Positions 37,701 through 64,000 of a stretch of DNA of 64,000 nucleotides are shown here, in pieces. Within the stretch, counting starts at the first letter, position 1. Each line of letters starts with the position of its first letter. The translations under genes were made by a program, and so were the position numbers. The notes below the pieces were generated by a model that worked only from the letters and a program-made list of their open reading frames with translations, was not told the DNA's origin and did not search any database. The stretch comes from Escherichia coli (lineage in GTDB: Bacteria; Pseudomonadota; Gammaproteobacteria; Enterobacterales; Enterobacteriaceae): assembly GCF_041886205.1 (NCBI RefSeq), contig NZ_CP169029.1; one strand, written 5' to 3'.

Positions 37701-40700
37701 TAAAATTGAAACACCTCTTGAGTGCGGTGTGAAGTAGTCTACCACCACCAAATCTTAGAAGACCTGGTGGAGGAAGAGAAAGCATCTACCTAGTGTCCGA
37801 CGGCGGCGGATTAGTTGATCACCGGGAGGAAGCATCACCCCTACGTGAAGGGAAGAGGAACGCGACGTGAAGAGGGCCGAGTCGAGGCAAAGTCGACGAC
37901 GTAAGCACATCAAGGTCAATGAGTTATTCTACACTGGAATATGTCCGAGTATTTACTTAGTGAAGAACCAATGGCTTGATCTAGGTTGGTTACCCCCGAC
38001 TAACCAATGACTACACAGGAGAAAGAAATATATAAATAAATAATAATGACAAGACCTTAGCGGTGGCGTGGAGGTTTTTGTTGTTCATTGTGATGGACAG
38101 AGTTCTGCTCATAAGAAGTATGGACGTACACTGTGGTTTAGATCAGGATTTAGTCAGGTTTATTGATAACTGTTGAGCATCTAAATGCCTTTAGGTTGCC
38201 TTACTTCAGCAGTTGCTAGCGGTGATTGTCATCACACCAGAAGAACAGAGCCAGCAAAGCCCAGCCAATGCCAGGTCAGCAGAACTCGGTCGAGTCAGGA
38301 GAAACCATGAGCGAGCGAGGTACTAGTTAGCAATGATGGAATGCCTGGACCAGAATGAGGAGATCATAGTGGTGAGTGTGCTTTCAGTGACAAAACCAGA
38401 GCCAAAACCAACAGCAACTAGCTGATGGCAGAGCCAGCTGAATTGCCTTTGCCGAGTGAAAAAATGGATGGGTGAAACACCCATCCTCAGCATCAAAACC
38501 AGAACTGATGTGTTCTGTGACAGGTTGGAAGATTGGCGTGTAGCTGGTGATGCTGCTGAGGAAGACAAAGAGCTGCCACAGCAATGGCAGAGAGGATGGC
38601 TGCTGGCCACTTTCAGTGGCTTGCTAAACCAGGTGGTTGATCACCGGACCCGGAAGTGGTGCACCAGCGAGATGCCCCACATTTCGCGTCGGGTTAGTGG
38701 TTTAATTTGTTATTTTTTTGCGGAGTGGCTGCAGATTGTTAGGTTGATTCCTGTTGATGAGATTCCACTAGGTGGGTGCAAGCTCATCCAGTCTACCTCA
38801 TCTCGTAGCTGTAGAGTGAGGGATTGTTTTACACCAGTGTGGTGAGCACTTGCTTTGCCTCAGCAGAAACATGGTGATGGATTTCCAGAGACTGATGAAT
38901 TGATGTTGTCCAGGATGCTGAGTGGAGGATGTGAGAGCAGGTTGGAGAAGACGGTCAGAGGAAGAAAGAAATTACTTTATTGTGGTGCAGGCATGGCTAG
39001 CTGGCTTAGTCGTCTGCCATCCTCGATCCATGGACATTGTCCAGCGGCAACGTCATTGCTGTTGCATGCCAGAGGACTCGGTTCTTCAGCTTTGTCCAGA
39101 TTGTCGTCTTCCGCAGACACTTGCTGAGACCTCAACATTTCAGCTAGCCACCCAGAATCGGGTTACGCAGGTGCCCCCCCCCCCCCACATCTTGAGCCAT
39201 GAGAGATCCAGATCATTTTTGCTAGTTGTGATCTAGTGGAGGGGGCGGTTGGCCTCCATCGAAGGCGTGAGATCGGGTGCTAGGCCCCATTGAGTTGCTC
39301 GATGAAGTAGTTGTATGCCGGGCGCCTTGACGTCGCACGTACGGACAATGTCGCCTTGCCGTCACAGTGCCCAGAGCCTTGCGTGTTGTGTAGACGCGCC
39401 TCCGGCGAGCTGCTTGATGATGCATGGGACATCTTTGTGGTGTAGGGCGATCGAAGGGTTTGTGAGTGGCTGCACAACCTGCACCACCGATTGTTGCTGC
39501 AGTGGGTAAGGAGTAGTGGTGGAGAAACCTGGAGGTCAGTGATAGACGATTGAAGGCCAGGTGCACCGACCTTGTCAGGGCGATGGTGCAGGGAGGTGGC
39601 GCTGCTATGTGTGGAAGTGATGGTCGGCGTGTGTTGTGGTGGTGTGGTAATTCTTCAGTCTTACTGCTTCATAAAGTTGTTGTTACCAAGAGCTGTTGTT
39701 TGGTTAATCTGCAATCTTTGAATTTCATAGTTGCATCATAGTTTGTAAGCGATACTCGGCCTGAGCAGGTGTAGCCTTCAATTGTCTGCATGGCCAACCA
39801 CTTTGGATCAAGGTGCCGAATCAAGCACGGTCGCCCGAACGAGACGATGGCCTTGAATCGACGGCACCGGGAGTCTTGGTCAGCAAGTTTGGTTAACCGC
39901 TTCACCAACGAAGGAGACCCTCTCCAACCACGCCGCCACCCAGAGTTCATTGTCTTCTCCACGGCGATTTTTAGTTAATCTATGCATATTTATTTTAGTA
40001 GTTTTCACGAGACCGAACCTTCTCCATGTACCAGTGGAGCCTTTCCAACTAAGTTGCTCACCCATTGAAAAAGAACCCATCGTTGGTACCGATGCCACTT
40101 GTACTCGATGCTTTGCCTTATGCCAGCGGCATATTTATGGTGAGAAATAGTGGAAAACCAAGTTTGGCTGCTGGCACGACACGGCTTCAACGTCAAGCCG
40201 AACAAGTGGGGTGAGGCTGAATGTTTCTTCGACACTTGGCGTTGGCGAACGACGAACCTGCTGGCTGAATGTTTATTTGGCTCACTGCAAAAGCAGCTCT
40301 CTCCCAGGCCACCTGGAGCAGCAGGCCTTCACTCTTTGTCACCTCTCCCAAGCTGGATGGTGAGTGATTCAGCTCACCAACTCATGAGGAATTTTTGCAG
40401 CACAAAAGGTGTGACAGCTGCCGCGACCAATAAGCTGCTGCAGAGACGAAAACTTGTGCAGAAATTGAATTCAGATGAGCTTCCATGCTCTGTTGATTGC
40501 ATTAATCAAGTAACTAAGAAGATGTGTTGCCTCCAGTTTGAGCCGAGTAGTTTGATGGTTTTTACTATACTGTTCAGAACTGGTCAACTTGGTTGTAGCT
40601 GTAAAGATGAGTTGAGATGCTGCCTTTACCTTTGCACTCATGCTGGTGCGAGCTGTGACCAGGAGACGACGGAAGGCCGTGGAATTGCCAGCCTCACCAG

Positions 40701-43150
40701 CTCAGCCAGAAGCTGTGTCTGACGCCTGCTCAGGCCACTGTGGGCTGCCAATGCTAGTTGCTTTCAGACATTGCGCCAGGAATCGATGGCATAATGGTGT
40801 TGCTGGCTCCAGAACAATTAGGTGTATCTCTTCCTCCATGTAACTGTTGCAGAATGTGTTTGCCCTCCAGGAAGACGCTACCCAGACCAGAAGGAAGGGG
40901 TTACTTATTACTCTTGCTTCAGCTGGTACCTGTCCACTTTAGTGTAGACTGATGTCATCAACGAGCAATGAAATGGGTGGCGGAGGCCAGCCAATGAGTG
41001 GGCAAATGCGTTGTGTGTCATAGTGGTTTATCAGCACCATGCACCGAACGTGACCAGCTTGTTGTGGTTTTTGCTATGTTGTGAGGCCGATCACGGCTCA
41101 TCCCCGTCATGCTGTGAAGAAGGACTGTGCTGAAGTTTATTACTTATTTGTCCGAAGGTTATTAATTAGGGTACATGTTCACTTATGTTGTAGACGTGCT
41201 AGGTCGACGAGGACAAAGGAGATGGAGCTGATTGCCAGGCGGACGGTGGAGGAAAACGGACGAGCCCATTGTGATGGCTGGTCACTGTGAGTGAGTGAGG
41301 AAGATTGTGAGGAAAGTGGATGGAGCAGAGAGAGAGAGAGTCCAGTGAGCCCCCAAGACGGTTTGACCTCAACCACTCAGTGGTGCAACTGTTGATCTGC
41401 ACGCACCGAATGAGACAAGACCAGGTGGTTAGGAAATGCTGCACAGAAGTGGTGCGTCAGGATGCATGTTGTGATGCTGCCTCCACCAGTGTGGCCATCA
41501 AACCATGGTGGTGTCAAGTGGTGTTGTAATGGCGCCAGACACGAAAGTGAGGACAAACTGGCTGTTTATTGTTGCAGCACCGCACTCAGCGTGAGCATTA
41601 GGCCAGGAAGAGAGCAGTTACGAGTTATCCATGTTGCCTGTGCACCACCACTCGTCCAGCTGACTGCTTCTGCGTCAGACTATGCCCTTGCCGTAACCGT
41701 TGCCATTGCCGCGACGGAGCCAACGCCACGGAGCCAGCGTCTGCACATTTGTTGTCAACTCCATGTCAAGCGACCCCTCGGAACGGTTGTGACATTTATA
41801 TGCGGTGGCAGTTTGCCGCCGTTCCATTTCAGAGTTCAGGTGTGCGGGCGACAGAGCGACTCCTGATGAGTTGGTCATCAGAGCCATGCTCCCAAAAGCC
41901 ATGCTTTGAGCTGTCACGGGGACACAAATCCTAGGATCAGGCCTCGCCCTGTGTCTTCAGCAGGAATGTCATTTTACAGTACAACTGCAGTCCACCTCAC
42001 CAAAAAAAAATCAGACGCCCATCTGTGACTCATGAATGTTTGTAGTGGTTAGGTTAGGAGAGGCAGCCACCTAGATCATGTGCCAACATCCTTGCTAGTA
42101 AGTGGTTATGTGTGAGACCAGAAGAGGTTGTTAATTCAGAGTCAACTGCTGTAAGCGGTACAGGTAGCAGCTTACTGTTTCTATGTGTTCAAAGTGACTC
42201 ACCGACTAGTTGCTCTTTCTTTCAAATTTTTGCCAACTAACTTTATATACAACCACTCACCATCAGATCAATGATGAAATATTTTGCCGACTTGTGCAGG
42301 CACATCCATGCTATGTGTGGTGGAAGAGTGAATTTAGACAGCAGAAGTCATTGGAGGTCAAATAATCCTCCACGGTACCCTTTACCACTTTATTTTCACA
42401 CCCACAAATTGATGTCACCGGACAGGCCGTCCAATCACTAGGCCAACAAGCCGTTGAAATGTTCTGCCAGCAGAAGAAAATGTAAATATGCCGCCATTGC
42501 ATCGAATTTTAGTGACTGAGTGACCACCGCCTCACCCTAGCTTCACCATTCCTACCGCCTACATCTACAACCACTCAATTCATTAAACAGCCCTTCAGGC
42601 TCAGGAAGTCTTGCAGAATGTGTTGTAATTATCTAATACAATTGTCAAAGACTTGGTGACCAAAATGAAGTGATCCATCAGTTGCCCAGGTATGCATTGT
42701 AGTCAAGTGCCCTGTTTGTGATGTTATATATATATCTGATGAATGTAATAGGTTACACAGCAGAGTTGTGAATCACAGGTTGTTTTTTCAGTGGACGATG
42801 CATTCATGTAGCCATTCTTTTTACTAGATGAGGAAGGGAGCCATCATCATTTGAAGCTAATTTAAAACATCCAAAAATGTACCAGCTACAATTGTTTTTC
42901 ATCGAAAATAGAGGAGTTGAACATTTACAGTAGCCAGAATAAAGTGAGAGGAAAAATGAAATGCAGAAAGACAGGTTAGGCCAAGATACGGTCAAAGAAC
43001 TCAATAACTAGAGGAAACGACACACACCCGCCCTGTTTTAGGGTAATAAAACATGAGATGACAAACAACTGTGTGGCTGCTTCCGGAAATAAGATGCAGG
43101 CCCGAGCCAAGCATACAATTAGATATGTCACAAACGCCTCAACTAGTAGA
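34770..43150. other. ~8.4-kb block without credible protein-coding potential and with non-E. coli sequence character (boundaries approximate)
   Basis: Longest ORF in six frames is 190 aa and the translations are Cys/Trp-rich and random-like; (CA)7 near 34896, C15 at 39173-39190, (GA)8 near 41330, A9 near 42003, (TA)6 near 42727; apparent CpG under-representation; occupies the place of stpA...csiD. Confidence 0.6.
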
Positions 43151-43155
43151 TATGA

Positions 43156-45285
43156 TCAATCAGTTGTGGAGAATCTTGAGGAACGAGAAACATGATCACT
43201 CCCTGAATGATTGATCTCTCTGATGTTGCTAGGTGAGAGGCAACCTCTCAACCTTCTTTTATTTATTATAACTAGTCCATCATGAGGAGAGTGATTAATG
43301 TTCACAGAATCCCCACGACTAAAGGCCAGAACGTTTTTAGTTGCAAATACACCCTCAAATGCGCTCCATATTCCTGCTTTATCTATATATAATGCGTGGA
43401 ATTCATTGTAGAGCTGCTGATAGGTAGAGCAACCTTTATTAAGCCACGCCTCACCGCCGACACGCGTCGACCCATCATCATTTTTAATTTCAGTCGTTGA
43501 TTTTAATACTTGGCCATCCCAGTAAACTAAAGGCCTGCTGAACGGGAGAGCGGCCATATATGCCATTGCTAATTGTTCATCTTGTTGATGGTTAAATAGA
43601 AAGTCATTGAAAAGATTGCCATTGTTAGGAAAATCGTGGTTAATGTTAATCAATATCCGTCTTTTTGATGGGATGCTTGAGATTGTTGAACCCGGTTTTG
43701 ATGCAAGGGTTTGGAGATCGCCACCAAATGAAAAAGCTTTTATCGTCTTCATGAGCAATGAAAAATCAATGGCGCTTAAATCATCTCTTTCATAAAGCAG
43801 CGATGACATTTGTTGTTCATCCAACTGACTAGTTACCAGATATTCCATGTAATTCATAACGGCTTTTTCATGATATTTTGGGTTAAATAAGTTAGTATTG
43901 TGTAATCGCTCATTATAATTTTTAAGCGGTGGGGTTATTGATCTTTCTATTTGTTCATGTTTTGAGTGTTTTGCTGCATCGTAACGTAAACCTCGTACGC
44001 CATATTTTCGCATTTCACGAACGTATTGATTTTGCAGCATAATAACCTGGTCACTTTTGGGGGTTGTTTTAGGCATTCCATTTAAACGCTTTTCTTTTAA
44101 TGCATAGAGGTTTTCCCATTCATCCTTAGAAATATTATCTTTACTTGCTTCGAAGTCTTTTGCAGTGAGATGTATATCTTCTGGATGGATTTGTTTACGT
44201 TCTTTTGTTACTGGATCTATAGTAAATGGAATCAAAACCTGACCTTGCCAATAGCCAGGGATACCACTTTCTATATCTTTACTGATCTTCGCTCGTATAT
44301 CAGTAGAGGGATAATCCAGGTCATTTTTACCACTACCCCCGATTCCCATAAAGTTAAAGGTATAATCAGGAATGATATCGATACCAAATTTTTTAGCATC
44401 TTTAACCAATGCGATAAAATCCTGCAAATCTCCCATTGGATTATGGATGGTACAAAGATCTTCGGGTTGATAAGCGTGAAACCAGTAACCTTTTTCTTCT
44501 TCGGGAGTTTCTGGTCCGTCGGCGCGGAAAGTTGTCACTGGAGGGATTTGTATATACCCATAATGGCAACGTGCAAACTCAGACATATTTTCCCTGATTT
44601 GCTGGTAGGTGGCATTAAAAGCATGAAGAATCGCTTCGCCAGGTTTTTTAGGGGTGATGATTTCACATTGTGATTTCTGAACAGCAGTAAGAGATTTACG
44701 CTCAAGTGTTTGCCGTAGATGTTCTGGATTGATTAATATTTTAAATGTTTCTTGCTGTCCGGAAGGTGACGTCACGTTAATATTATATACATCGGCTGCC
44801 AGCTCATAGTCAGGGATGTTAATAGCATATGCAACATATTTATCTTTTGGGGAGGGTTTTTCAGATATAATGTGGGTGAAATATTCAGCAGGACCATACT
44901 GGTGAACCCCCTTGTTATCTTCTCTTTCATTCATTGTATCTCTTTGATAAATCCATGTTTTTCCTTCTCCTATCCTGTCTGGCGCTGTAATGCTACGCTG
45001 TGCAGCTTTATTCAGTTCACGGTAAGTTGTATCTGGAAAAAGGGAAATTTTATAATCGTTTTTTAACAGATCATTAATGATTTTTTCTGCGTGAAAAGTT
45101 GATATAATTTCTCTGTCTTTTAAATCCTGAGGATAAACTCCACAAGCATTAATAATATTTGTTACACAGTTTAGATATTCTAATGTATTTAATTTGGAAT
45201 TTAGATCCCCGTCAGTAATGTTCCATGATAACAATGTGGGGGTGTCGATAGGTAAATTTCTTGGTCCTGGTTTTATAGAAAACAT
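43156..45285 (-). CDS. ygaQ: Alpha-amylase family (GH13-like) protein, probable intact form of ygaQ
   Basis: 709 aa AT-rich ORF; motif GVRGLRYDAAKH resembles GH13 conserved region II (GxRxDAxKH); adjacent to ileY as ygaQ is in E. coli; C-terminal ~40 codons may run into the anomalous block. Confidence 0.5.
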   Translation of the reverse strand: MFSIKPGPRNLPIDTPTLLSWNITDGDLNSKLNTLEYLNCVTNIINACGVYPQDLKDREIISTFHAEKIINDLLKNDYKISLFPDTTYRELNKAAQRSITAPDRIGEGKTWIYQRDTMNEREDNKGVHQYGPAEYFTHIISEKPSPKDKYVAYAINIPDYELAADVYNINVTSPSGQQETFKILINPEHLRQTLERKSLTAVQKSQCEIITPKKPGEAILHAFNATYQQIRENMSEFARCHYGYIQIPPVTTFRADGPETPEEEKGYWFHAYQPEDLCTIHNPMGDLQDFIALVKDAKKFGIDIIPDYTFNFMGIGGSGKNDLDYPSTDIRAKISKDIESGIPGYWQGQVLIPFTIDPVTKERKQIHPEDIHLTAKDFEASKDNISKDEWENLYALKEKRLNGMPKTTPKSDQVIMLQNQYVREMRKYGVRGLRYDAAKHSKHEQIERSITPPLKNYNERLHNTNLFNPKYHEKAVMNYMEYLVTSQLDEQQMSSLLYERDDLSAIDFSLLMKTIKAFSFGGDLQTLASKPGSTISSIPSKRRILININHDFPNNGNLFNDFLFNHQQDEQLAMAYMAALPFSRPLVYWDGQVLKSTTEIKNDDGSTRVGGEAWLNKGCSTYQQLYNEFHALYIDKAGIWSAFEGVFATKNVLAFSRGDSVNINHSPHDGLVIINKRRLRGCLSPSNIREINHSGSDHVSRSSRFSTTD

Positions 45286-45844: not shown

Positions 45845-45920
45845 GGCCCTTTAGCTCAGTGGTTAGAGCAGGCGACTCATAATCGCTTGGTCGCTGGTTC
45901 AAGTCCAGCAGGGGCCACCA
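45845..45920 (+). tRNA. ileY: tRNA-Ile2 (anticodon CAU, lysidine-modified type)
   Basis: 76 nt GGCCCTTTAGCTCAGTGGTTAGAGCAGGCGACTCATAATCGCTTGGTCGCTGGTTCAAGTCCAGCAGGGGCCACCA. Confidence 0.85.
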
Positions 45921-49176: not shown

Positions 49177-49824
49177 TTACGGGTCAACAAACACACTGAT
49201 GGGGAGGTTAAACCGGCGCGCAAGTGCTCGCTTGTGATCCAGTGTTAATGTGCAATCCCCTTTCAGGATGCGACTCACCAGAGATTTATTACCAATCTCT
49301 TCTTCAAAATCGCTCTGAGTCAGTTTGTGCTGATCCATCAGTACGCGCAGTAAGGCAACACCCGTTGGGACCGCTGCAATACGGCTATTAAATTCAGCAA
49401 ACTCCGGCGCTTCATCTTCATACTGACCGATTTTCGCAACCAGAATATCCACCAGCGGATGGTCCGGCTCGTGTTCAATCAGATACTCGACCAGAGCCAG
49501 TGCATCTTCACTGTGGAAGCGTACGACTGATGTATAGGTAACATTTTGTTCAGTAATATATTTCATGGCTGCCAGTAAGTAGGAAGCTTTGAAAGTCACG
49601 TCCTGATAGTCCTTAGCTAACAAACTCCCATTCTCTTCAAACCGTTCAACAAATGCTGCAACTTCTTTTGGATCGATACGGCTGGTTTTATCTTTTCCGT
49701 TTCGAACAAACAGCTTTTGTTCTTCAGTATATAGCGTAAAAGGTACCTTCCTTGCCCCAGTAGACAGTTCAACTGGTTGGGAAAAAGACTCCAACATTAA
49801 ATGATAGAAATCTTTATAAGTCAT
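49177..49824 (-). CDS. Two-domain protein: unknown N-terminal domain + C-terminal XRE-family HTH
   Basis: 215 aa; C-terminus LTQSDFEEEIGNKSLVSRILKGDCTLTLDHKRALARRFNLPISVF fits HTH_XRE; lies 89 nt downstream of mcrC on the same strand. Confidence 0.6.
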   Translation of the reverse strand: MTYKDFYHLMLESFSQPVELSTGARKVPFTLYTEEQKLFVRNGKDKTSRIDPKEVAAFVERFEENGSLLAKDYQDVTFKASYLLAAMKYITEQNVTYTSVVRFHSEDALALVEYLIEHEPDHPLVDILVAKIGQYEDEAPEFAEFNSRIAAVPTGVALLRVLMDQHKLTQSDFEEEIGNKSLVSRILKGDCTLTLDHKRALARRFNLPISVFVDP

Positions 49825-49913: not shown

Positions 49914-51215
49914 TTACGGGGAAAACAGGGGGAAGGACGATTGCCACTCACCTTCCACTAATGCCCCTGATTCAAGCTCGAAGGGCACACACCAGAGCGA
50001 TAAATGTTTATCAAAATGGAACACTGGCAACGGAGTATCAAAAAACTGATGACGTGGATATATCAGCATCATATTCCCCTTCCCTTGCAGATATTTTTGC
50101 CCATAAGCGAACATCTGATACAGATCAGCCTGGTTAATTTCATACTTTCTCAGGCTGTTATCAGCTCGGCTGTCTAACAGCTTCCATTTGGCATCCAGTA
50201 CCATTACCTGCTCACCTGTGATGAGAAAGTCAGGTTTAAGCATGAACCATTGTTGAGGAGCCCTTTCGCCAGCAGGTACATGATCTAACAAATAATGACG
50301 TTTTGCCTGCTCAATAAGCTGATAATCCCTCAGCAAAGATAAAGCCAAACTGCGCCCCACCCAGCATTCATATAATTTTTCCATCGGGAACAACAGCGAG
50401 ATCCCCTGATGCAACCCATGCTGAAAATCTGGATTCAGTTTTTCCAGAATAAGTTGGCACCATGGCTTGATGGCACGATAAGCATAGAGATATTTACCGT
50501 TGCTCCATTGCGCCAGAGGCTGCGTTGTACTGCCACAAATTGGCTCTATACCGTCCAGTTGGTGGCTCAACGTGTTCGCCTGTCGCCAGCTCTGCCCCTC
50601 TTTGGTCATTTTAAGCACCCAATTCAGGGCCGTACGTAACAGACGGTTTTCAACTCGCTGAGGTGAAAACTCCGCATAACGCACATGAAAGCGAGCATCT
50701 CTACCAGGAGGCTGTCTCATTTGTGCCGTGATGTTCAACTGACCACGGATAAAAGCGCTGTGCTCATCCTCAACAAGGTGGTAGTCGAACCGCAACCCTT
50801 TGTGTACCAGTTCGGTAAGATGCCGCAAGAACTCGCTGAAAATCCACTCATGCATCGGCTGGTTGCTCCGCTGCAATGCAGCCTGATTAACTTCTCGGGG
50901 TGTAATCCCCAATGAAGCGCTGAGCATTCGACGTAAAAGCTGACGCAGGGGGATTATCTCAGTTGGCGCTTCAAATGTGGTTTTGGGCAGAATTTCAATT
51001 GACTCGCCATTCGGGGATTGTAGATAACCGACATAGCTTCCCAAACGCAAAAACCGCTTCCCTTCTCGGCTGAGAATTTGAGAGGTACCACTCCACTTTT
51101 GTTGCAATTGCTCAAGCCAGGAAAAGGTTGCCTCAGAGACAATTCCCAAATCCATACTGGCTGTTTGAGAACTATCACAAGTCAGCAGAGCATATTCCCG
51201 GACCTGGATCATCAT
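49914..51215 (-). CDS. mcrC: McrC-family nuclease subunit of a type IV (modification-dependent) restriction system
   Basis: 433 aa; PD-(D/E)xK-like VLDAKWK motif; 4-nt overlap with upstream McrB-like gene. Confidence 0.75.
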   Translation of the reverse strand: MMIQVREYALLTCDSSQTASMDLGIVSEATFSWLEQLQQKWSGTSQILSREGKRFLRLGSYVGYLQSPNGESIEILPKTTFEAPTEIIPLRQLLRRMLSASLGITPREVNQAALQRSNQPMHEWIFSEFLRHLTELVHKGLRFDYHLVEDEHSAFIRGQLNITAQMRQPPGRDARFHVRYAEFSPQRVENRLLRTALNWVLKMTKEGQSWRQANTLSHQLDGIEPICGSTTQPLAQWSNGKYLYAYRAIKPWCQLILEKLNPDFQHGLHQGISLLFPMEKLYECWVGRSLALSLLRDYQLIEQAKRHYLLDHVPAGERAPQQWFMLKPDFLITGEQVMVLDAKWKLLDSRADNSLRKYEINQADLYQMFAYGQKYLQGKGNMMLIYPRHQFFDTPLPVFHFDKHLSLWCVPFELESGALVEGEWQSSFPLFSP

Positions 51216-53194
51216 GTGACAATACCCTGATAAGCTTCTACCGACGCGAAAGCACGTTCATTGATGCGAAAACGCCTGTCAGACAAGCTATCCGCAATAT
51301 CTTTCGGGAATAGTTCAGAGAATGACGGTAATTGTGCTGACTGTTGCAACAGGATAAAACGGTTTTCTTTCGCTTTTACCGAATCATTAAGCACCCAACC
51401 AATGCGCTCATAATCATCAAAGAAATACTCTCTCAGTAATGGAATGATTTTGTTCTGGAAGATGCTGGCCAGACAGGCTTCGCGGTCGGCATTATTTTCT
51501 AATTTTTTTAGTGGCATAAAGTAAGCATGGCCAATCATATGTTCACTATCCAGCAGCGCTTCGATCCGCTGATTAATACGCGTTAACAACGTTTCGACAT
51601 CAACACCGAACGCAGTGACCCCAGCTAACAGCTCCGGTCGTGCGGGCATTTCGGTAAAGCTAAAGCGTCGTCTTAGCGCCAAGTCCATTTGGATGAGTGA
51701 TTTATCCGCAGTATTCATCGTCCCAATGACATAAACATTTTGCGGTACTGAGAATGCTTGCTTTGAATAAGGGAGCATCAGCGACCGCTCATCATCGGCC
51801 CCTTGACGTTTGTCCGGCTCAAGAAGAGTAATAAGCTCACCAAAGATACGTGCTATATTACCGCGGTTGATTTCATCTATTATCAGTACATGTGGTAGAT
51901 CCTGACTATCGGCATTCTCAACAGGAGCCAGCAACTGAGTTAATTTTTCACGATCAATCGTCGTATCCTGCAACTCATATAGGGTCATCTGAGATAGTGA
52001 CTTGATGAAAATTTGCTCTTTAGGAAGGCTTGGGGTGTATGTTCTTAACCATTTAACTGAACGCATTTGATGGTAATACTCACGTTCATCATTGGGTAAA
52101 TAACTATACTCACCTGTAATCTCAGCTATTGCACGGAACTTATGATTTCCATCAGAGACGACGACTAAATCGCCATTCTTAATAATATTTTTAAAGGTAT
52201 TCACGGCAACAGCCATATAATTACTGGTGCCTTCCAATGACTGTTTTTCTGATGCAATCCGAGCTTTGACTGACTCATAGGTAGAGCAGTTACTAAAATC
52301 GATATCTTCTCCCCAACCTAGCAGGACATAATTGTTTGCCAGGCAGTCCTCATACACATCCTCTTCTCCGCCCATGGTATTACCCAGAGACATCTTCCAG
52401 ATCCGCCGACCTTTGAGTGAGATAGATTGTGTTGCACTCCCCTGAACTTTAACCCTGGCATTCAGGCACAGCTGTTTAAAAATACCATCCACAACTTCGT
52501 AGCGAAGCGCGCCCGATTTTTCATCAGTAGTTGCGCGAATCCCTTCGATAAAATCTTCATAGGAGAAGCTCTGATGGAAGGTGGTAAACATAATGCGCTG
52601 CTTTTCTACCAACGCCTTATAGCGTTCATTTACCAACTCCCGTAAGTCATTGCCATGATGTTCGAGCGTAGCCTGTTGGTACCACGTATTATCGGCAATT
52701 TTGACCGCCATTTCGGTGGTACTGTAGGTTTTACCCGTGCCGGGTGGTCCAAAGAGAATTTGGTTTAAGGGATACATTAACGATTGTTCCTTATTTTCGT
52801 TGTCTCTTTTTAGTCTGGGTTGGGTAGTTATAGATGGTTTACCACCCAGCAAAGCCACCAGCGTCTGCAACGCTTCAACGGATTCAACATCAGCCGCGAA
52901 ACCATATTGGGATGTACCGTTATCTTTCGGATAACGGCGGTAGCTGGTGCTTTTTACTTTTTCCCAAAGGCAGTGGATACCCGAAATGCGATCAATTTCC
53001 GCTTTTACGGCAAGGGTTTCAGGTGCAAGAACCAATGGACTCTTTTTAACCACGCCGTCCCGGCTGCGTTTGACATACAGATACTTTCCATTCCCGAGCG
53101 CATGTTCGGATGCATAGCTTGGCTCGAATTTTCCCGCCTCAAGCCGGTAACCCAATTCATTCAACGCCTGGTATATCTCGAAAGAATTCAGCAT
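51212..53194 (-). CDS. mcrB: McrB-family AAA+ GTPase with atypical N-terminal domain and ~190-aa insertion between Walker A and Walker B
   Basis: 660 aa; Walker A GPPGTGKT, McrB-type Walker B LIIDEINRGNIARIFGEL, FHQSFSYEDFIEG; inserted segment RRIWKMSLG...GDLVVVSDGNHKFRAIAEITGEY...RSVKWL. Confidence 0.75.
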   Translation of the reverse strand: MLNSFEIYQALNELGYRLEAGKFEPSYASEHALGNGKYLYVKRSRDGVVKKSPLVLAPETLAVKAEIDRISGIHCLWEKVKSTSYRRYPKDNGTSQYGFAADVESVEALQTLVALLGGKPSITTQPRLKRDNENKEQSLMYPLNQILFGPPGTGKTYSTTEMAVKIADNTWYQQATLEHHGNDLRELVNERYKALVEKQRIMFTTFHQSFSYEDFIEGIRATTDEKSGALRYEVVDGIFKQLCLNARVKVQGSATQSISLKGRRIWKMSLGNTMGGEEDVYEDCLANNYVLLGWGEDIDFSNCSTYESVKARIASEKQSLEGTSNYMAVAVNTFKNIIKNGDLVVVSDGNHKFRAIAEITGEYSYLPNDEREYYHQMRSVKWLRTYTPSLPKEQIFIKSLSQMTLYELQDTTIDREKLTQLLAPVENADSQDLPHVLIIDEINRGNIARIFGELITLLEPDKRQGADDERSLMLPYSKQAFSVPQNVYVIGTMNTADKSLIQMDLALRRRFSFTEMPARPELLAGVTAFGVDVETLLTRINQRIEALLDSEHMIGHAYFMPLKKLENNADREACLASIFQNKIIPLLREYFFDDYERIGWVLNDSVKAKENRFILLQQSAQLPSFSELFPKDIADSLSDRRFRINERAFASVEAYQGIVT

Positions 53195-56472: not shown

Positions 56473-57791
56473 GCGGTGGCCTCCTGTGGCTCCTCAGCGT
56501 CCTGCGTGTCAGGTGCTACCCAATCACGGACGTCGATTTTTCCGGTGACGGCAGCGGAGATCAGGGCGGTACGGCGTTCCTGGAGAATTTGAATAGTCTG
56601 CTCGACCATTTCTTGAGTTATTTGTATTTTGTCTATCTTTTCCAGTACTTTTTTTGCCAGATAAACCTGATCATCAAAAGGAATATCTCTCACGTAAAAA
56701 TTACTAATTTGCTCTGGACTAATATGCGGCACACTAACACCAGTCAAGTCTATTTCAGCATATTCTCTGAATTCATTGCTACTAAGACATAATTTAATAA
56801 ATGGTTGATATGATTTTATATTTGACCTTATCCTTGCAACTCGCTGCAATAAGAGGCAAGGTAAATCCTGCTCTTTAATTTCTGAAACCCTTGCTCCAGA
56901 ACTAATCCATGGTCTATCCATACCAAAAACAATATCGCCAGCCGCTAATAAATAATCACTGAGCCTATCGAGTGTTCTAACATCCCAATATACAACGTCA
57001 TCCCATTTTATGCTGTCAACACCGACATTAACCCCTCGTAAAAGAGGAATACTATTATCAGGTGAAAATTTAAATTTTGTACTTGAAAATGGATAGCCAG
57101 TTTGAATACTAACTAAGTTTTTTAGCTTAGTTTTCCTCTCATTACTACGTATACTGGCGACACTTGAGATCACGGCCTGACGCTTTTCTTTAAGTAGTTC
57201 AATTAGTTGCTGTTGCTTCTCGATCAGGTTATCGATTTTTGCAGTTTCGTGATCGAGGAAACTGTATATTTTTTCCTGCTCAGTCTTGTCTGGAAGCAGC
57301 AGCTCAATATTTCTAAATTCATCAGGATCCAGATCCCATTGATTGACTCGTATCCCCTTGGAGCGGCTCAGATATTGAGTAACGTAAATCGGGTTGCGAA
57401 GTAAATAATGCACATACCTTGGATGTGCCAGTTCAAAAAGGACATTGTTGGGTTTATAGACAAAATATGCCGGACTAACTATCCCTTCATACTCTGAAAT
57501 TGCGATTGAACCTTGCCAGGCTTTCATCTTATTCATAACCAAATCATTTGGCTCAACCAATTGATAGGGGGACAAATCCTCTGAAGGCTTATTATTGTTA
57601 TCATCTCTGCTTGATTTTGGTATAACACCATAGTCCCGATATACGGAAAGCAATTCTTTCTCTGTATATCCGGTCCGCTTGATCCTGGAAAACAATCTGG
57701 ATATGGATACGGTTTTCCAGTGATTCGGAATCTCCCCCAACCACTCAACCCCAGAATCCTTATACTCCGGATACATCTTATACTTCGCCAT
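56469..57791 (-). CDS. hsdS: Type I restriction-modification specificity subunit (HsdS)
   Basis: 440 aa with two TRD-like halves separated by a central conserved region; start overlaps hsdM stop by 1 nt. Confidence 0.85.
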   Translation of the reverse strand: MAKYKMYPEYKDSGVEWLGEIPNHWKTVSISRLFSRIKRTGYTEKELLSVYRDYGVIPKSSRDDNNNKPSEDLSPYQLVEPNDLVMNKMKAWQGSIAISEYEGIVSPAYFVYKPNNVLFELAHPRYVHYLLRNPIYVTQYLSRSKGIRVNQWDLDPDEFRNIELLLPDKTEQEKIYSFLDHETAKIDNLIEKQQQLIELLKEKRQAVISSVASIRSNERKTKLKNLVSIQTGYPFSSTKFKFSPDNSIPLLRGVNVGVDSIKWDDVVYWDVRTLDRLSDYLLAAGDIVFGMDRPWISSGARVSEIKEQDLPCLLLQRVARIRSNIKSYQPFIKLCLSSNEFREYAEIDLTGVSVPHISPEQISNFYVRDIPFDDQVYLAKKVLEKIDKIQITQEMVEQTIQILQERRTALISAAVTGKIDVRDWVAPDTQDAEEPQEATA

Positions 57792-60175
57792 CAGGAATGT
57801 ACCTCCCGCAGCAGCTTCATAATCTCGGTACTGACTGCATCCAGATCGGCATCAATCTCTTCCAGTGGGCGCGGCGGCTGATAGACGTAGAAATGGCGGT
57901 TAAACGGAATCTCATAACCGACAATTCCCACCTCACCATCTTTCGCATCACGCTTATCGGCGTTGATCCACGCATCATTTACATGCGGCAGCACTTCTGC
58001 TTTGAAGTAGTTTTCGATCAGGTCGCTGGTCGACATTGCCGGGTTCAGCGGCACGTTTTCGTTATCGCGCAGCTCGCCGTCCTGTTCGAACTCAACAACC
58101 TTGCCTTTGTACTCAAACGCACCGTACAGCGGCTGAGCGGCTTCTTTCAGCACCTTCTTCACCACCGGCTCGGCATCCGGGTTTTTCGTGGTAATGGCAT
58201 CGATAAACTGCTTGTTCTCTTTCGCATCCAGCTTCACGCCAGCCGTTTTGATGGCCCCTTTCAGGGTCAGTTGGAACTGATTGAAGTCATTGCTCACCCG
58301 CGTTTTGCCACCCGCCTGCGCACCCAATACCACCTGAATCTGCTGTGCTTTTTCCATGAACTCGCGCTGTGCCAGCCACAATTTGCTGTCGAGCAGGTCT
58401 TTAATCTGCTTCTCTTTCAGCTCTGCAAATTCGGCTTTGATGATGGCGCGCGCTTCGGCTTCCAGTTCGGAGAAATCACCATAGCTGTCCTCCCTCCACT
58501 GGGATGCGAACTCTTCATACAGGCGTTCCATTGGCGCGTTAAACGGCTTCGGCGCAAAGCGCAGAGTCGCAATCGCTTCATCAGTCACCTGTGCAGATAA
58601 CCGCAGCGGGCGCTCAATGGTCAGGCGGCGATAGCCAAAGTCGGTGCTGTTAAAGATTTTGCTGGCGAAGGTTTTCGGAGCTTCGGTTTTGGCCATGGCA
58701 GGCTGACGGCCACGGTTGGATTTTTGCTCGGCGGCTTTTTCCAGACCCAGTTCTTCCAGGGCTGTGACATCCACCACCTGAAAATCACCGAAGGTCTGCG
58801 TGATCAGTTTGATATCGTCTTCGCCCATCAGGTTGCGCTTGGAACCCAGCGATTTACGCATTTTGCCGCACAGGTTAGTGCCATCAATCAGCTGTACTTT
58901 TCCTTTACGCTCAGGCGCTTTCTTGTTGGAGAGGATCCAGACGTAGGTGGCAATACCGGTGTTGTAGAACATATCTGTTGGCAGCGCGACGATGCCTTCC
59001 AGCAAATCGGCTTCCAGAATGTAGCGACGGATTTCGCTCTCACCGCTGCCCGCACCACCAGTAAACAGTGGAGAGCCGTTAAGGATAATCCCGATACGTC
59101 CGCCGTTGCTCACGGTGCCATCCACATTGTGGTTGTCGCGCATTTTGCTGATCAGGTGCATCAGGAACAGCAGCGAGCCGTCGGAAACACGCGGCAGGCC
59201 CGGGCCAAAGCGACCGTTAAAGCCCTTTTGCGTATGTTCGTCGTTAATCTCGCCCTCAATCTTCTTCCAGTCCACGCCAAACGGTGGGTTAGACAGCATG
59301 TAGTCGAATTGATCCAGCGGTAACTGGTCGTTAGAGAGGGTGTTACCCAGCTTAATGCGGCTGACGTCCTGACCTTTGATCAGCATGTCGGCTTTACAGA
59401 TAGCGTAGGATTCCGGATTCAGCTCCTGACCAAAAGCGCGCATCACCGCGTTAGGGTTCAGCTCGTGCACATATTCCATGCCCGAAGAGAGGAAACCACC
59501 CGTCCCGGCCGTCGGGTCATAAATGGTGCGGATGATACCAGGCTGCGTCAGGGCTTCATCATCTTCCATAAACACCAGTGAAGTGGTCAGACGCACGATA
59601 TCGCGTGGGGTGAAGTGCTCACCGGCGGTCTCGTTAGATCTTTCCGCGAAACGACGGATAAGTTCTTCAAACACCAGGCCCATCTCATAGTTGGAAATCG
59701 CTTTCGGGCTGAGATCGGTGGTGGCGAATTTCTTCACTACTTTGAACAGCAAGTTGGCGTCTTCCAGCAGGCCGACGAACTCACTGAATTTAAAATGCTC
59801 GAAGATTTCACGCGCATCGGGCGAGAACGACTGGACGTAATTCTCCAGGTTGGCTTTGATGTCGTTCTGCCCCATCTTGCCAAGATCCATCTTCGAGGTG
59901 TTGAAGAAGGAAAGCTCGCTGGCGCGCAGCAGAAACTTCTCTTTGGCATCTTCCGGCAGCGTGCTGGTTTTTAATTCATCATATTTCGCCACCACCGCAT
60001 CTTTGGTCTCCGCCAACACACACTCAAGACGGCGCAGCAGCGTAAAGGGCAGGATCACGCGCCCGTACTGAGACTGTTTGAAATCACCGCGCAGTAGATC
60101 GGCCACCGACCATATAAACGCAGCCGTTTGAGAAAAGTTAGTGTTAGTCATAAGCGACACCCAAAAAAATGGCAT
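57791..60175 (-). CDS. hsdM: Type I restriction-modification N6-adenine DNA methyltransferase (HsdM), long form with ~300-aa C-terminal extension
   Basis: 794 aa; AdoMet motif DPTAGTGGF and catalytic NPPF; alternative start at ATG 60151 (MTNTNF) because a TATAAT lies immediately upstream of 60175. Confidence 0.85.
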
Positions 60176-60358
60176 AAAAAAGTGGCAAGATTATACCCCA
60201 TCAGGCATAAGATGCTTTGACTTATAACGCATCAGTTTGAAACACAATGGTGATGGGGGTCACAGGGGCTGACATGTACTTTTAAGATTAAAAAGCATTA
60301 ACATCTACTTTTGAAGAAAACAGAAAAAAACAATCACAAACCTTTAAAAACAAAAACT

Positions 60359-63300
60359 ATGCCAATTATTAATAAAAAGTATCAAGAGCTTCAGTTAACA
60401 GATGAGTACATTACCGATCCACTGCTCATGGCCCTAGCCTGGAAGAAAAGCCATCACTACATACGTACCACAAATTGGTATGCTGACAACTTTGAACTAG
60501 ACCTGTCGGCTTTGGACCTAATGCAGCACTGTAAAGATTGGGTCAAGAGAATGCAGGACAAAAAAGAATTTAAATTTTCAGAGCTACAACTTGTTCCTGT
60601 ACCAAAAGCCTGTAAATGGGAGTTTAAGACTGTCGAAAATAAGGTTCTATGGCAACCTTGTGATGAAAAAGAACTTACCCTACGCCCCCTTGCCCATATA
60701 CCCATAGCTGAACAAACCATCATGACATTAGTCATGATGTGCCTAGCCAATACAATAGAAACCAAGCAAGGAAACCCAGACACCAGCTATGACATCGTCC
60801 ACCAGAAAGGTATCGTCAATTACGGAAATAGACTTTATTGTCAGTATATTGACGATAAAGCAGAGCACAGCTTCGGTGCAACAGTGACATATAGTAAATA
60901 CTTCACTGATTATCGGAAATTTTTAAATAGGCCTTATCATTTTGCGTCAAAAGCGCAAGGTGAAATTTCGCCGGACGAAGCCGTTTACATCATAGAACTA
61001 GATCTTGCGAAGTTTTTCGATTTAGTAAACAGGAAGACTCTAATTCAAAAGATAAAAAACCATATCAGTGAGTCAATAAACAATAAAGAAAACCCACTCG
61101 CCAATCATTTATTTAAATGTTTTGCAAACTGGGACTGGACTGCATCTAGCATAAAAAATTATGACATATGCAAGTCAGACGAAGTAACAGAAATACCAAA
61201 AGGCATCCCTCAAGGATTGGTTGCAGCAGGGTTTCTATCAAATATTTACTTACTTGAATTAGATCAATTCTTGCATAATAAAATTAACACAGACATAACT
61301 GATGACATTAAATTTGTTGATTACTGTCGATATGTCGATGACATGCGATTTGTGGTTAAGGTTAAAAAATCAAAAAATAATAATACCGCATTCATAAATG
61401 ATGTAATAACCAATCTTCTTAAAAATGAGATAGATAATCTTGGACTGATAATTAATCCTAAAAAAACAAAAGTAGAAATTTTTAGAGGCAAATCCGCAGG
61501 CATCTCGCGTAGCTTGGAAAACATCCAGACCAGATTAAGCGGCCCAATATCAATGGATAGCGCCAACGAACAACTTGGGCATCTTGAGTCATTATTAAGT
61601 CTGACAAAAACCGATTTTGAACCACCGAAAAATGGTAAATCAAATAGATTAGCTGAGATTGAAAAAGACCGTTTCGATGTCAGGGAGGACACTCTTAAGC
61701 GCTTTTCTGCCAATAAAATCAGTAAGATACTAAAAGAGTTAAGACATTTCATCTCGCAGGATATAGATACTGATGGGGAGGTTATTGCCGGGGAATGGGA
61801 TTATCTGCAAGAACGTTTGGCACGGCGTTTTATTGTCTGTTGGAGCCATGACCCGTCACTGGCACTGCTACTCAAGAAAGGGCTGGAACTTTTCCCTGAT
61901 CCTAAGCTATTAGACCCTATACTTGAACAGCTTTGCTCACTCATTGAAAGCGATAATGAAAAACAAAGTGCAGTAGCTACTTATTGCCTTGCTGAAATAT
62001 TTCGACATTCAGCAATGACTATTCATAAAAAAGACACCTATGCATTCCCTGCACAAGCCAATGTGGATGGGTACTTTGAAAAAATACAACATTGCGCCGC
62101 GACATTCATTAATAAGCGCAGCGCCTCTGACAACGAAACTTGGAACCTGTTAATTAATCAGGCTAGTTTTCTGTTGCTTGTGCGTTTAGATAATACATTA
62201 GAAAAAAATGGCACTGATGCCAGGCATGATCTTATCTTAAAACTGGCATCAGGCTTTAGAACAATTACACTTCCCACTAAAATGGATAGCAAGACTATAG
62301 CCTCATGTATTTTGTTGGCTAGTCAATTAGTTAAAGATAACAAACCATTTATTCGCTCCTGCGCTTCTTTGTGCGAAAGAATTTATGACAAAGAACACGT
62401 CATAAAATTGAAGAAAATAGTTAGCATAATATCACATCAAAACTTATCATTGTTTAAATCCTTAGTTTATCATTCACGACCTTTACAACAGAAGTGGCTA
62501 AACTCAGACTCCGTGAAAATAATAATTAATGAATGCCATATAGATATACAACCTTTGGCGACTTCTTTAGGCATGATAAAAAGTAGTCACTCATTACTTA
62601 GAATCATATCAAGACCTGATAACCCATTTGCCAATGAGATAATGGCATTAAAACTGATGCAAGCCCTTTTATTGGACAGGATTGTTTGCCTGGATAATAA
62701 AAAAGATTATCAAATAAGTGTAGCAAACACCAAAGTGACGTTTCATAACTACTCCAACCCTCCAACATCGAATGTCTTCGATGCAGGAATGGATATGGAT
62801 GCAAAATTATTCAAATCATCGGGATGGGTCGATTCTATTTTCACGGATGATGCAGACACTCAAATATTGTATAGAGTTGCCATGTGCATCCGTTCAGTAC
62901 TACTCGGCAAACAAGACTGGACAGATTTTGGTCAAGCAATTTCCCCCAAACAGGGTTATCGGGGTATTAAAACTAGTAGAGACAAACGTCAATTGGGGAT
63001 GATGACAACACCTGAGTCCATTGCCGGTGAGAACTCTCAGGTTTCTGGTTGGCTTACCACACTCTTATCCAAGTTGCTTGCCTGGCCGGGAATTTCAGTG
63101 GGTGATAATGGATATCAATGGCCAGCAATTTTTACAGTAGATGCTGTCAGAAAACTAGTTGATGCTCGGCTGAGTAAACTTAAGCAGGATTACTGCAAAC
63201 TATCAGGAACTCCGGGACTTACAGAAAAAATACAGTTCAACTGGTCTGACTCGAAAAAAGCCCTAACAGTTGCTATGGTCCAGTCAAAACTGCCTGCAAC

Positions 63301-64000
63301 GAAAGATTTTGTCAGCCATGGACTTCTTTTAAACTCCGCAAAGTATAGAGTGATTCATCGCAGACATGTTGCTGAAGTGGCTGATTTAGTTGTAAAACAC
63401 ACGCTTGCACAAAAAACAACTCAACGAACTCATGGTGAAAAAATAGAGAACATTGATTTAATAGTATGGCCTGAGCTCGCTGTACATAGTGACGATTTGG
63501 ATGTACTCATCGCCTTATCTAGAAAAACGAATGCAATCATATACTCGGGCCTGACATTTATTGAGCAACCTGGAATCAAAGGACCAAATAATTGTGCCGT
63601 TTGGATTGTCCCACCTAAAAGCAATAGCAGCCAGAAAGAAATGATAAGACTTCAAGGCAAGCATAATATGATGGAAGATGAGAAAGGCCGGGTTGAACCC
63701 TGGAGACCATACCAATTGATGCTTGAACTTGTTCACCCCCAATTTACTGATAAAAAAGGATTTGTTCTCACAGGCTCCATTTGTTATGACGCAACCGACA
63801 TCGCGCTAAGTGCAGATCTCAGGGATAAATCAAATGCTTATCTTGTAGCAGCATTAAACAGGGATGTTAATACATTCGATTCCATGGTTGAAGCACTGCA
63901 TTATCATATGTACCAGCATGTTGTGCTCGTTAACTCAGGGGAATTCGGAGGATCTTACGCTAAAGCACCTTACAAGGAGCCGTTTAATCGTTTGATTGCT
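60359..64000 (+). CDS. Defence-associated reverse transcriptase fused to a C-terminal nitrilase (CN-hydrolase) domain, DRT1/UG1-like; 3' end beyond window
   Basis: At least 1214 codons with no stop; RT motifs LDLAKFFD, GIPQGLVAAGFLSNIY, YVDD at 61331-61342, GLIINPKKT; long helical middle; nitrilase-like WPE (Glu 63473-63475), GKH, ICYD (Cys 63782-63784); not in ORF track because open-ended. Confidence 0.65.
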   Translation, partial: MPIINKKYQELQLTDEYITDPLLMALAWKKSHHYIRTTNWYADNFELDLSALDLMQHCKDWVKRMQDKKEFKFSELQLVPVPKACKWEFKTVENKVLWQPCDEKELTLRPLAHIPIAEQTIMTLVMMCLANTIETKQGNPDTSYDIVHQKGIVNYGNRLYCQYIDDKAEHSFGATVTYSKYFTDYRKFLNRPYHFASKAQGEISPDEAVYIIELDLAKFFDLVNRKTLIQKIKNHISESINNKENPLANHLFKCFANWDWTASSIKNYDICKSDEVTEIPKGIPQGLVAAGFLSNIYLLELDQFLHNKINTDITDDIKFVDYCRYVDDMRFVVKVKKSKNNNTAFINDVITNLLKNEIDNLGLIINPKKTKVEIFRGKSAGISRSLENIQTRLSGPISMDSANEQLGHLESLLSLTKTDFEPPKNGKSNRLAEIEKDRFDVREDTLKRFSANKISKILKELRHFISQDIDTDGEVIAGEWDYLQERLARRFIVCWSHDPSLALLLKKGLELFPDPKLLDPILEQLCSLIESDNEKQSAVATYCLAEIFRHSAMTIHKKDTYAFPAQANVDGYFEKIQHCAATFINKRSASDNETWNLLINQASFLLLVRLDNTLEKNGTDARHDLILKLASGFRTITLPTKMDSKTIASCILLASQLVKDNKPFIRSCASLCERIYDKEHVIKLKKIVSIISHQNLSLFKSLVYHSRPLQQKWLNSDSVKIIINECHIDIQPLATSLGMIKSSHSLLRIISRPDNPFANEIMALKLMQALLLDRIVCLDNKKDYQISVANTKVTFHNYSNPPTSNVFDAGMDMDAKLFKSSGWVDSIFTDDADTQILYRVAMCIRSVLLGKQDWTDFGQAISPKQGYRGIKTSRDKRQLGMMTTPESIAGENSQVSGWLTTLLSKLLAWPGISVGDNGYQWPAIFTVDAVRKLVDARLSKLKQDYCKLSGTPGLTEKIQFNWSDSKKALTVAMVQSKLPATKDFVSHGLLLNSAKYRVIHRRHVAEVADLVVKHTLAQKTTQRTHGEKIENIDLIVWPELAVHSDDLDVLIALSRKTNAIIYSGLTFIEQPGIKGPNNCAVWIVPPKSNSSQKEMIRLQGKHNMMEDEKGRVEPWRPYQLMLELVHPQFTDKKGFVLTGSICYDATDIALSADLRDKSNAYLVAALNRDVNTFDSMVEALHYHMYQHVVLVNSGEFGGSYAKAPYKEPFNRLIA

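Follow-up and report, generated by a model that had tools for sequence, protein, structure and literature searches.

The long hsdM gene of the window, which is the whole 64,000-nucleotide stretch of Escherichia coli chromosome analysed here, is best read (with a probability of about 85%) as encoding an intact HsdM, the methyltransferase subunit, from a complete type I restriction-modification system, at a length that is normal for a large and widely distributed HsdM family. As a gene, the long hsdM is already known, being annotated and widespread. Its novelty appears, from profile alignments, to be a ~275-aa insertion that separates the catalytic domain from the tail of the protein rather than an add-on to its C-terminus.

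An earlier interpretation of this region, referred to here as the sequence-only reading, had described a 794-aa HsdM ORF without stating its strand. The ORF is real and intact, and its reading frame is on the minus strand (Table 1); a plus-strand reading of the same interval was ruled out by stops throughout that frame. The true start is probably Met9 (ATG at 60151), giving a protein of 786 aa, since the identical RefSeq CDS begins there and homologues align from this residue. The proposal that the N-terminal ~500 aa carry the methyltransferase motifs was borne out: DPTAGTGGF and NPPF begin at residues 220 and 296, respectively (794-aa numbering), and the Pfam families HsdM_N and N6_Mtase extend to residue 469. 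The domain layout is that of HsdM: the N-terminal domain precedes a gamma-class N6-adenine methyltransferase domain, which contains motif I (xxGxG) as well as motif IV (NPPF/Y). Residues 1-469 are, judged by their domain content, a normal HsdM. Alignments to the solved HsdM structures PacII, 3lkd and EcoR124I stop at about residue 466.

Table 1 Features of the hsdM gene and its operon (residues of HsdM in 794-aa numbering).
Feature	Position	Strand	Details
hsdM ORF	57791..60175	minus	uninterrupted; 794 codons plus stop, counted from first ATG
HsdM_N, residues 18-150	59726..60124	minus	Pfam PF12161, E 1e-26
N6_Mtase catalytic domain, residues 165-469	58769..59683	minus	Pfam PF02384, E 2e-55
Motif DPTAGTGGF	59492-59518	minus	
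Motif IV NPPF	59279-59290	minus	
Putative family-specific insertion, residues ~471-744	57944..58765	minus	boundaries from hhalign
Low-confidence linker, residues 470-503	58667-58768	minus	
Conserved beta block, residues 504-535	58571-58666	minus	
Helical region of variable length, residues 536-690	58106-58570	minus	
Conserved acidic block E.D..LRD.ENVPL...YF..EVLPHV.DAWI, residues 691-744	57944-58105	minus	conservation in homologue alignment
Putative HsdM hairpin counterpart (canonical NDYNLNIPRYV), linker and terminal amphipathic helix, residues 745-794	57794..57943	minus	
hsdM stop codon TGA	57791-57793	minus	
hsdS, 440 aa	56469..57791	minus	Pfam Methylase_S; PADLOC Specificity_I, E 4e-101
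hsdR, 1082 aa	53224..56472	minus	Pfam HSDR_N, SWI2_SNF2, ResIII, T1R_D3-like; TIGR00348

The gene context is that of a type I methyltransferase subunit, with an adjoining hsdS encoding two recognition domains and an hsdR encoding a nuclease and an SF2 motor. Read directly from the sequence, the hsdM stop and the hsdS start share one base (TGATG), and the hsdS stop and the hsdR start share four (ATGA). In all likelihood, hsdM-hsdS-hsdR constitute a complete, translationally coupled type I operon on the minus strand with hsdM as the first gene. The operon is located in a genomic island adjoining a tRNA(CAT) gene of the E. coli chromosome. A scan for promoters and terminators gave counts not above those in shuffled sequence. 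Beyond the three genes, an McrBC-like gene pair follows the operon here and likewise at a second locus (L004).

The sequence-only reading regarded this HsdM as unusually long, a view that the distribution of its relatives contradicts. The identical RefSeq protein, WP_024199119.1 (PGAP name 'type I restriction-modification system subunit M'), belongs to a 90% cluster of 767 members from the Enterobacterales, including E. coli, Klebsiella, Cronobacter, Edwardsiella, Enterobacter and Citrobacter. Long-form HsdM was found in 2% (116/5426) of E. coli genomes and on 761 plasmids, the latter corresponding to about one fifth of the plasmid records matching this HsdM. The PADLOC profile MTase_I PDLC03029 matches the protein end to end, including the conserved post-catalytic blocks (E 1.4e-285; residues 1-785 on profile positions 1-660 of 661); positions 451-660 are also matched by the extension taken by itself. 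With its 661 positions, the profile models an architecture with a shorter insert and handles ~130 further helical residues of this HsdM as insertions. Altogether, the extension matches 2346 representatives of 50%-identity clusters (E<=1e-3), and 15 full-length homologues (644-841 aa) combine HsdM_N, N6_Mtase and the extension. Given this profile, these counts and an active V. cholerae relative encoded on the island VPI-2 (see below), the long form can largely be regarded as the norm for a type I family that has been characterised, an outcome that the sequence-only reading had itself named as counting against its claim. The curated hsdM equivalog TIGR00497, which models the ~515-aa canonical form, has a cut-off of 242.75 bits; at 78.5 bits, this HsdM falls far short of it and lies outside that equivalog.

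A closely related system occupies the classical hsd locus of E. coli GF4-3, flanked by yjiA and yjiS, with 81% identity in HsdM and 84% in HsdR. By an in-silico convention, systems whose HsdM and HsdR exceed ~70-90% amino-acid identity are assigned to the same type I family (PMC5399793, PMC10030836), and on these identities the GF4-3 system belongs to the same family as the one described here.

Next, we looked into the region beyond the catalytic domain. The Pfam comparison that the sequence-only reading had suggested as a check matched the catalytic half of the protein, and no Pfam or NCBIfam family covers residues 470-794. Sequence searches of the PDB, run with the full protein, with an alignment profile and with the last 102 aa, gave no relative beyond the catalytic half (matches to stathmin helices, at E 0.3, were set aside as chance), and a fold search with the extension model found no match in the PDB. 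Having neither a Pfam family nor a solved structure, the extra region is in line with the statement that long-form HsdM subunits are little studied. The full-length AlphaFold model (786 aa) reached a pLDDT of 92.4 and a pTM of 0.87, with values of 95-98 pLDDT in the extension. Of the description of this part as charged and helical, the charge holds, with 31% charged residues compared to 24-27% in the N-terminal and catalytic domains; the modelled fold, however, is mixed alpha/beta with several strands and not purely helical. The net charge of the inserted module is -10 and speaks against DNA binding as a simple role; DNA binding on the basis of charge was accordingly dropped as unsupported. 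As is the core, the extra region is under purifying selection (pN/pS 0.20 in the extension and 0.14 in the core).

With respect to the position of the extra residues, the canonical post-catalytic segment has its counterpart in residues 427-470 of this HsdM (hhalign, E 1.4e-8), and residues 745-794 align with the tails of seven canonical plasmid HsdMs at E 7.5e-4 with a probability of only 25%; the extension profile gave no significant alignment to the EcoKI tail alone. The canonical HsdM tail lies spatially near the N-terminus of HsdS, and M-S fusions are functional (PMC3510504). Fusion ORFs of this kind, running straight on into an HsdS domain, are present in the long-form family. The alignment suggests that the last ~50 residues correspond to the canonical HsdM hairpin and the HsdS-docking helix, the terminal helix spanning residues 763-785 of the 786-aa AlphaFold model. 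With the canonical tail retained at the very end, the "extension" would be an internal insertion. Of the claimed C-terminal extension, the ~275 extra residues stand, and the terminal location appears to be imprecise, as far as the modest hhalign statistics allow. An internal duplication, with the post-catalytic helix and hairpin in two copies, was ruled out (hhalign, E 0.3).

By analogy with EcoKI, EcoR124I and PacII, two HsdM subunits would bind one HsdS via their terminal helices, and the target methylated by this assembly would be bipartite. Within the M2S or R2M2S complex, the inserted module would act as a structural element at the periphery and not as a separate enzyme. Following the example of the BsaXI knob, it may cradle the recognition domains of HsdS, lengthen the DNA clamp or touch HsdR. 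The sequence-only reading had assigned the extension to assembly or regulation; a role in assembly is plausible for the terminal helix, and the inserted module may contribute to assembly or to DNA clamping.

Two related alternatives would give the module a more active part. In the first, which we consider unlikely, it is an undescribed domain providing a capability that classical HsdM lacks, on a scaffold reused in HsdM-HEPN chimeras as an abortive-infection sensor. An interface for HsdR recruitment or restriction control and resistance to DNA-mimic anti-restriction proteins are the candidate capabilities in that reading. The second, slightly less probable still, holds that the ~275-aa insert has an autonomous function, for example as a regulatory or sensor module governing the change between restriction and modification, as a decoy for anti-restriction proteins or as a platform coupling the system to other defence effectors. 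A fold without solved counterpart, an invariant acidic motif (LRD.E..PL) and a DAW motif matching no known function, as well as the McrBC-like pair here and in L004, are consistent with such a function. In addition, ~420 aa stand in place of the terminal helix in two relatives (P0123 and P0133), and a 56%-identical relative of one segment of this replacement is named RiboL-PSP-HEPN by a source, which suggests that fusion of an effector to this HsdM scaffold is feasible. However, Pfam, NCBIfam and PADLOC revealed no catalytic or ligand-binding signature in the insert, and its helical middle differs greatly in length between relatives, from almost nil to ~300 aa, as is typical of a structural spacer. 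We therefore favour the module as a structural element of an otherwise ordinary methyltransferase subunit.

It is highly improbable that the long ORF is an artefact in which hsdM was joined to a distinct gene downstream by a frameshift or by an error in sequencing. Some database entries do encode the extension alone, for example the 271-aa P0021 from a contig of 4.5 Mb. At this locus, however, hsdM is split into four pieces and hsdR likewise, so it is the P0021 copy that is frameshifted, and stand-alone extension ORFs were rejected as a separate gene because the examined copy sits in this multiply frameshifted locus. The occurrence of intact single ORFs of 644-841 aa in many taxa excludes the separate, frameshifted ORF that the sequence-only reading had itself raised. 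Furthermore, a single PADLOC profile covers the whole protein, AlphaFold packs both halves in one model and purifying selection continues across the junction. Least probable of all is a methylase of a non-type-I system (MADS MAD2, BREX PglX or a single-chain type IIG/ISP enzyme), to which a weak NCBIfam match (antiphage_MADS2, E 1e-13) and distant Foldseek similarity to the methylase domains of BpuSI, LlaGI, MmeI and BsaXI might point, but which is ruled out by membership scores and gene context: MAD2 membership (NF047738) requires 720 bits and the protein reaches 50.3, coupled hsdS and hsdR adjoin hsdM, HsdMs account for all of the best matches by structure and by profile, and the protein contains no nuclease or helicase domain.

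As a common, annotated type I methylase of normal length for its family, the gene itself is of little consequence. All solved type I methyltransferase structures, however, represent the short form, and since the long form is common, the ~275-residue module is a genuine blank in what structures tell about a very common defence enzyme. HsdMs of such length should not be taken for fusions or errors by annotators and readers. If the module governs HsdR recruitment or the sensitivity to anti-restriction proteins, this would help to explain how several type I families coexist at one chromosomal locus.

Compared with canonical HsdMs (EcoKI, EcoR124I and PacII M1/M2; about 500-540 aa), the protein shares the N-terminal and gamma-class N6-adenine methyltransferase domains with their motifs, the post-catalytic strand and helix, and the adjoining hsdS and hsdR. 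It differs by its ~275 additional residues and is 20-25% identical to solved HsdMs. An analogy to the module comes from the type IIB enzyme BsaXI, whose knob cradles the recognition domains and whose knob and paddle act in DNA binding and cleavage (PMC11997821). Both are helical elements appended C-terminally to an N6-adenine methyltransferase fold in an S-subunit-dependent enzyme. The analogy is functional only, as a PDB search including BsaXI detected no structural or sequence similarity to the inserted module, and the insertion point differs.

Among enterobacterial systems, KpnBI offers a further likeness. This type IE prototype is reported by Chin et al. (2004) to have an hsdM of 2631 bp and an hsdS of 1344 bp overlapping by one base. 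The long hsdM and the one-base hsdM/hsdS overlap would resemble the arrangement found here. An HsdM of this size would be an 876-aa product, ~90 aa above the present one; subunit lengths do not appear in other papers that cite KpnBI. A 786-aa protein of Klebsiella falls in the same 90% cluster as this HsdM.

The experimentally characterised relative is the type I system of the V. cholerae island VPI-2 (HsdM VC1769, HsdS VC1768 and HsdR VC1765), which was shown to methylate GATGN6CTT and is among the verified defence systems of the island (PMC12409362). Its operon contains two embedded GmrSD-like genes without counterpart in the operon described here. Over the first 399 aa compared, VC1769 is 38% identical to this HsdM, below the 70% level, and by the customary >70-90% criterion it represents another family. 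The same 399 aa are 81% identical to P0205, a long-form member of 799 aa that aligns with this HsdM over its full length. Judged by these first 399 aa, the active V. cholerae methyltransferase probably shares the long-form architecture.

The hsdM gene of this type I restriction-modification operon forms one ORF of 794 codons on the minus strand, uninterrupted and of the length given in the sequence-only reading, but with the strand corrected; the coordinates could not be read as plus strand, where stops occur throughout the translation. The methyltransferase motifs begin at residues 220 (DPTAGTGGF) and 296 (NPPF), counting from the first ATG, and the C-terminal peptide quoted in that reading is present, followed by 16 more residues. 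The first eight codons (MPFFWVSL) are likely untranslated and the start is probably Met9, because the identical protein of E. coli GDSC2227PM (WP_024199119.1, 786 aa) is annotated from this position and homologues align from it; a small number of database entries use an upstream start (795 aa). hsdM is the first gene of the minus-strand operon. Its stop shares one base with the hsdS start (TGATG), the hsdS stop shares four bases with the hsdR start (ATGA), and HsdS (440 aa) and HsdR (1082 aa) contain the expected domains.

Genomic features and HsdM segments (nucleotide positions refer to the window, residues to HsdM)
Feature	Position	Strand	Remarks
709-aa ORF	43156-45285	minus	adjoins tRNA(CAT); in a low-GC region (36-40%); weak alpha-amylase catalytic-domain match only, E 3e-5
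tRNA, anticodon CAT	45845-45920	plus	beside the cluster; annotated tRNA-Ile in near-identical E. coli copy
215-aa ORF, C-terminal HTH_3	49177-49824	minus	E 8e-4
McrC homologue (433 aa) and McrB-like AAA_5 protein (660 aa)	49914-53194	minus	directly downstream of hsdR
hsdM	57791-60175	minus	794 codons plus stop, one unbroken ORF (translation)
HsdM_N	residues 18-150		Pfam
N6_Mtase	residues 165-469		Pfam
Conserved beta block	residues 504-535		SKIF..FGYRxITVERPLRL; alignment of 16
Helical middle	residues 536-690		length highly variable among members; alignment of 16
Highly conserved C-terminal part	residues 691-794		invariant residues within LRD.E..PL, DAW, GYEI.F

This hsdM is a known gene that databases already annotate, and its length, at first regarded as unusual, is standard for its family. 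HsdM is matched end to end by PDLC03029, a PADLOC model for type I methyltransferases (E 1.4e-285). The 90% cluster of HsdM comprises 767 proteins from across Enterobacterales, and the long form is present in 116/5426 complete E. coli genomes. Those of the listed cluster members that have a name are called type I subunit M, N-6 DNA methylase or SAM-dependent methyltransferase, with the 198-aa protein P0280 as the single exception. Among plasmids, 761 of the 3577 matching records cover at least 80% of HsdM. E. coli strain GF4-3 carries a long-form system at the classical hsd position, flanked by yjiA and yjiS; with HsdM 81% and HsdR 84% identical to the proteins of the window, both systems belong to one family by the usual convention. 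Between these two copies, pN/pS was 0.20 for the extra region (residues 470-794) and 0.14 for the core, both rough values since synonymous sites are near saturation. The long hsdM is not an artefact of a frameshift that joined it to a separate ORF. The split copy is the broken one: in a relative's locus (L004; GCA_013283975.1, CP054158.1, 4457-11418), the same hsdM-hsdS-hsdR cluster has hsdM and hsdR in four ORFs each; either the assembly is rich in indels or the locus has decayed. Stand-alone "extension" ORFs in databases derive from such broken hsdM copies, this locus being the source of proteins of this kind.

In the Pfam comparison, HsdM_N and N6_Mtase are followed by the extra region; residues 470-794 match no family in Pfam or NCBIfam, and all solved HsdM structures align, by sequence and by fold, to the first ~470-500 residues only. 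Used as sole query, the extra region matched 1187 proteins in one database and 2346 cluster representatives (50% identity clusters) in a second, and every full-length match examined contains HsdM_N, N6_Mtase and the extra region. The extra region is strongly conserved; aligning 16 full-length members (644-841 aa) showed the three kinds of sequence listed in the table. AlphaFold2 modelled full-length HsdM (121-sequence alignment) with pLDDT 92.4 and pTM 0.87, the extra region reaching 95-98 and low confidence being confined to a linker at about residues 479-498. Modelled by itself (pLDDT 92.7), the region is a mixed alpha/beta fold; the earlier description as helical does not hold for the whole.

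Is this region a C-terminal extension, as proposed? An internal duplication within HsdM was rejected (E 0.3, profile comparison). The comparison used EcoKI and seven HsdMs from plasmids, all canonical and 507-540 aa long; the canonical profile was built without EcoKI. The canonical strand and helix that follow the catalytic domain (VLFIDAS...LSEENIKKIVKTY) are matched by residues 427-470 (probability 95.5%, E 1.4e-8), while residues 745-794 align, with modest scores (E 7.5e-4, probability 25%), to the hairpin, acidic linker and tail helix of canonical HsdMs (NDYNLNIPRYV...EEIDLLAV). In canonical enzymes the tail is a helical element lying beside the N-terminus of HsdS, and fused M-S proteins are functional (PMC3510504); some ORFs of the long-form family pass from the terminal helix directly into a Methylase_S domain. 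From these matches, the tail position and the fusion ORFs, the extra sequence is best described as an insertion of ~275 residues (about 471-744) that separates the catalytic domain from a kept HsdS-docking tail. The initial observation is confirmed with strand and start codon corrected, and its interpretation partly supported. The additional sequence is real, but it appears to precede the tail rather than extend it.

By analogy with EcoKI, EcoR124I and PacII, two HsdM would bind one HsdS via their tail helices, the N-terminal and catalytic domains would clamp DNA and methylate one adenine per half-site, and HsdR would join to form the restriction complex. The inserted module, covered by neither a solved structure nor a curated domain family, would most likely play a structural role: it might cradle the recognition domains of HsdS, lengthen the clamp or serve as a docking site for HsdR. 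Four points are relevant here: Pfam, NCBIfam and PADLOC gave no enzymatic signature in the module; its helical middle is free in length from relative to relative; in the model (pTM 0.87) it packs against the HsdM core in a defined manner; and in BsaXI, helical additions on the S-dependent methylase hold the recognition domains and contact DNA (PMC11997821). The module's net charge of -10 counts against simple DNA binding. An autonomous regulatory or sensor function is possible.

Outside the window, two relatives, P0123 (1148 aa) and P0133 (1130 aa), are long-form HsdMs as far as GYEI; directly after it, the terminal HsdS-docking helix is replaced by ~420 residues bearing an Rx4-6H motif (LRNDIAHRG and IRNTSVGHG, respectively). 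P0123 shares 56% identity over residues 949-1145 with P0280, which one source names "RiboL-PSP-HEPN domain-containing protein". These proteins may be HsdM-HEPN effector chimeras, although no profile in Pfam or NCBIfam bore out the HEPN domain. The database ORFs P0200, P0252 and P0224 run from the long-form terminal helix directly into a Methylase_S recognition domain; they are natural M-S fusions or else the product of single-base frameshifts where the two genes overlap by one base. Each lacks its N-terminal part and hence comes from a fragment.

The window is E. coli chromosome: domain content identified alaS and nrdE, and many strains have an alaE with 100% identity to the one here. The tRNA(CAT) gene is the likely attachment site of an island; in the near-identical E. 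coli copy, the far side of the operon carries integrase, recombinase and ParB-family genes and an IS1 element. L004 shows the same hsdMSR and McrB order next to an integrase, and hsdMSR with McrB/McrC looks like a conserved five-gene defence island. The AAA_5 protein contains an unusual segment (about residues 265-408) matching PADLOC candidate-defence models PDC-S02. The HTH_3 ORF is longer than its counterpart, which the matching E. coli record annotates as just a partial "transcriptional regulator" pseudogene. Directly after alaE, about 8.5 kb (34700-43200) hold a 190-aa GTG ORF as sole ORF of at least 150 aa. Megablast against 5426 complete E. coli genomes gave no match, and Rfam gave no family; this strain-specific DNA is apparently either non-coding or badly decayed. 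Upstream of hsdM, 3.8 kb (60176-64000; 39% GC, positive AT skew, no ORF above 143 aa) had no match in the plasmid collection, nor about 60.4-64.0 kb in other E. coli genomes; the one E. coli copy that is near-identical stays similar up to about 60370, where that strain has IS1.

Among known systems, KpnBI (type IE) reportedly has an hsdM of 2631 bp with a one-base overlap with hsdS. In vivo, the V. cholerae VPI-2 system methylates GATGN6CTT, and it is one of the defence systems of that island listed as experimentally verified (PMC12409362). Over its first ~400 residues (PMC11411939 supplement), its HsdM, VC1769, is 38% identical to HsdM of the window and 81% identical to the 799-aa long-form member P0205, whose alignment with our HsdM spans the full length. 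VC1769 is thus presumably a long form as well, as judged from these first ~400 residues.
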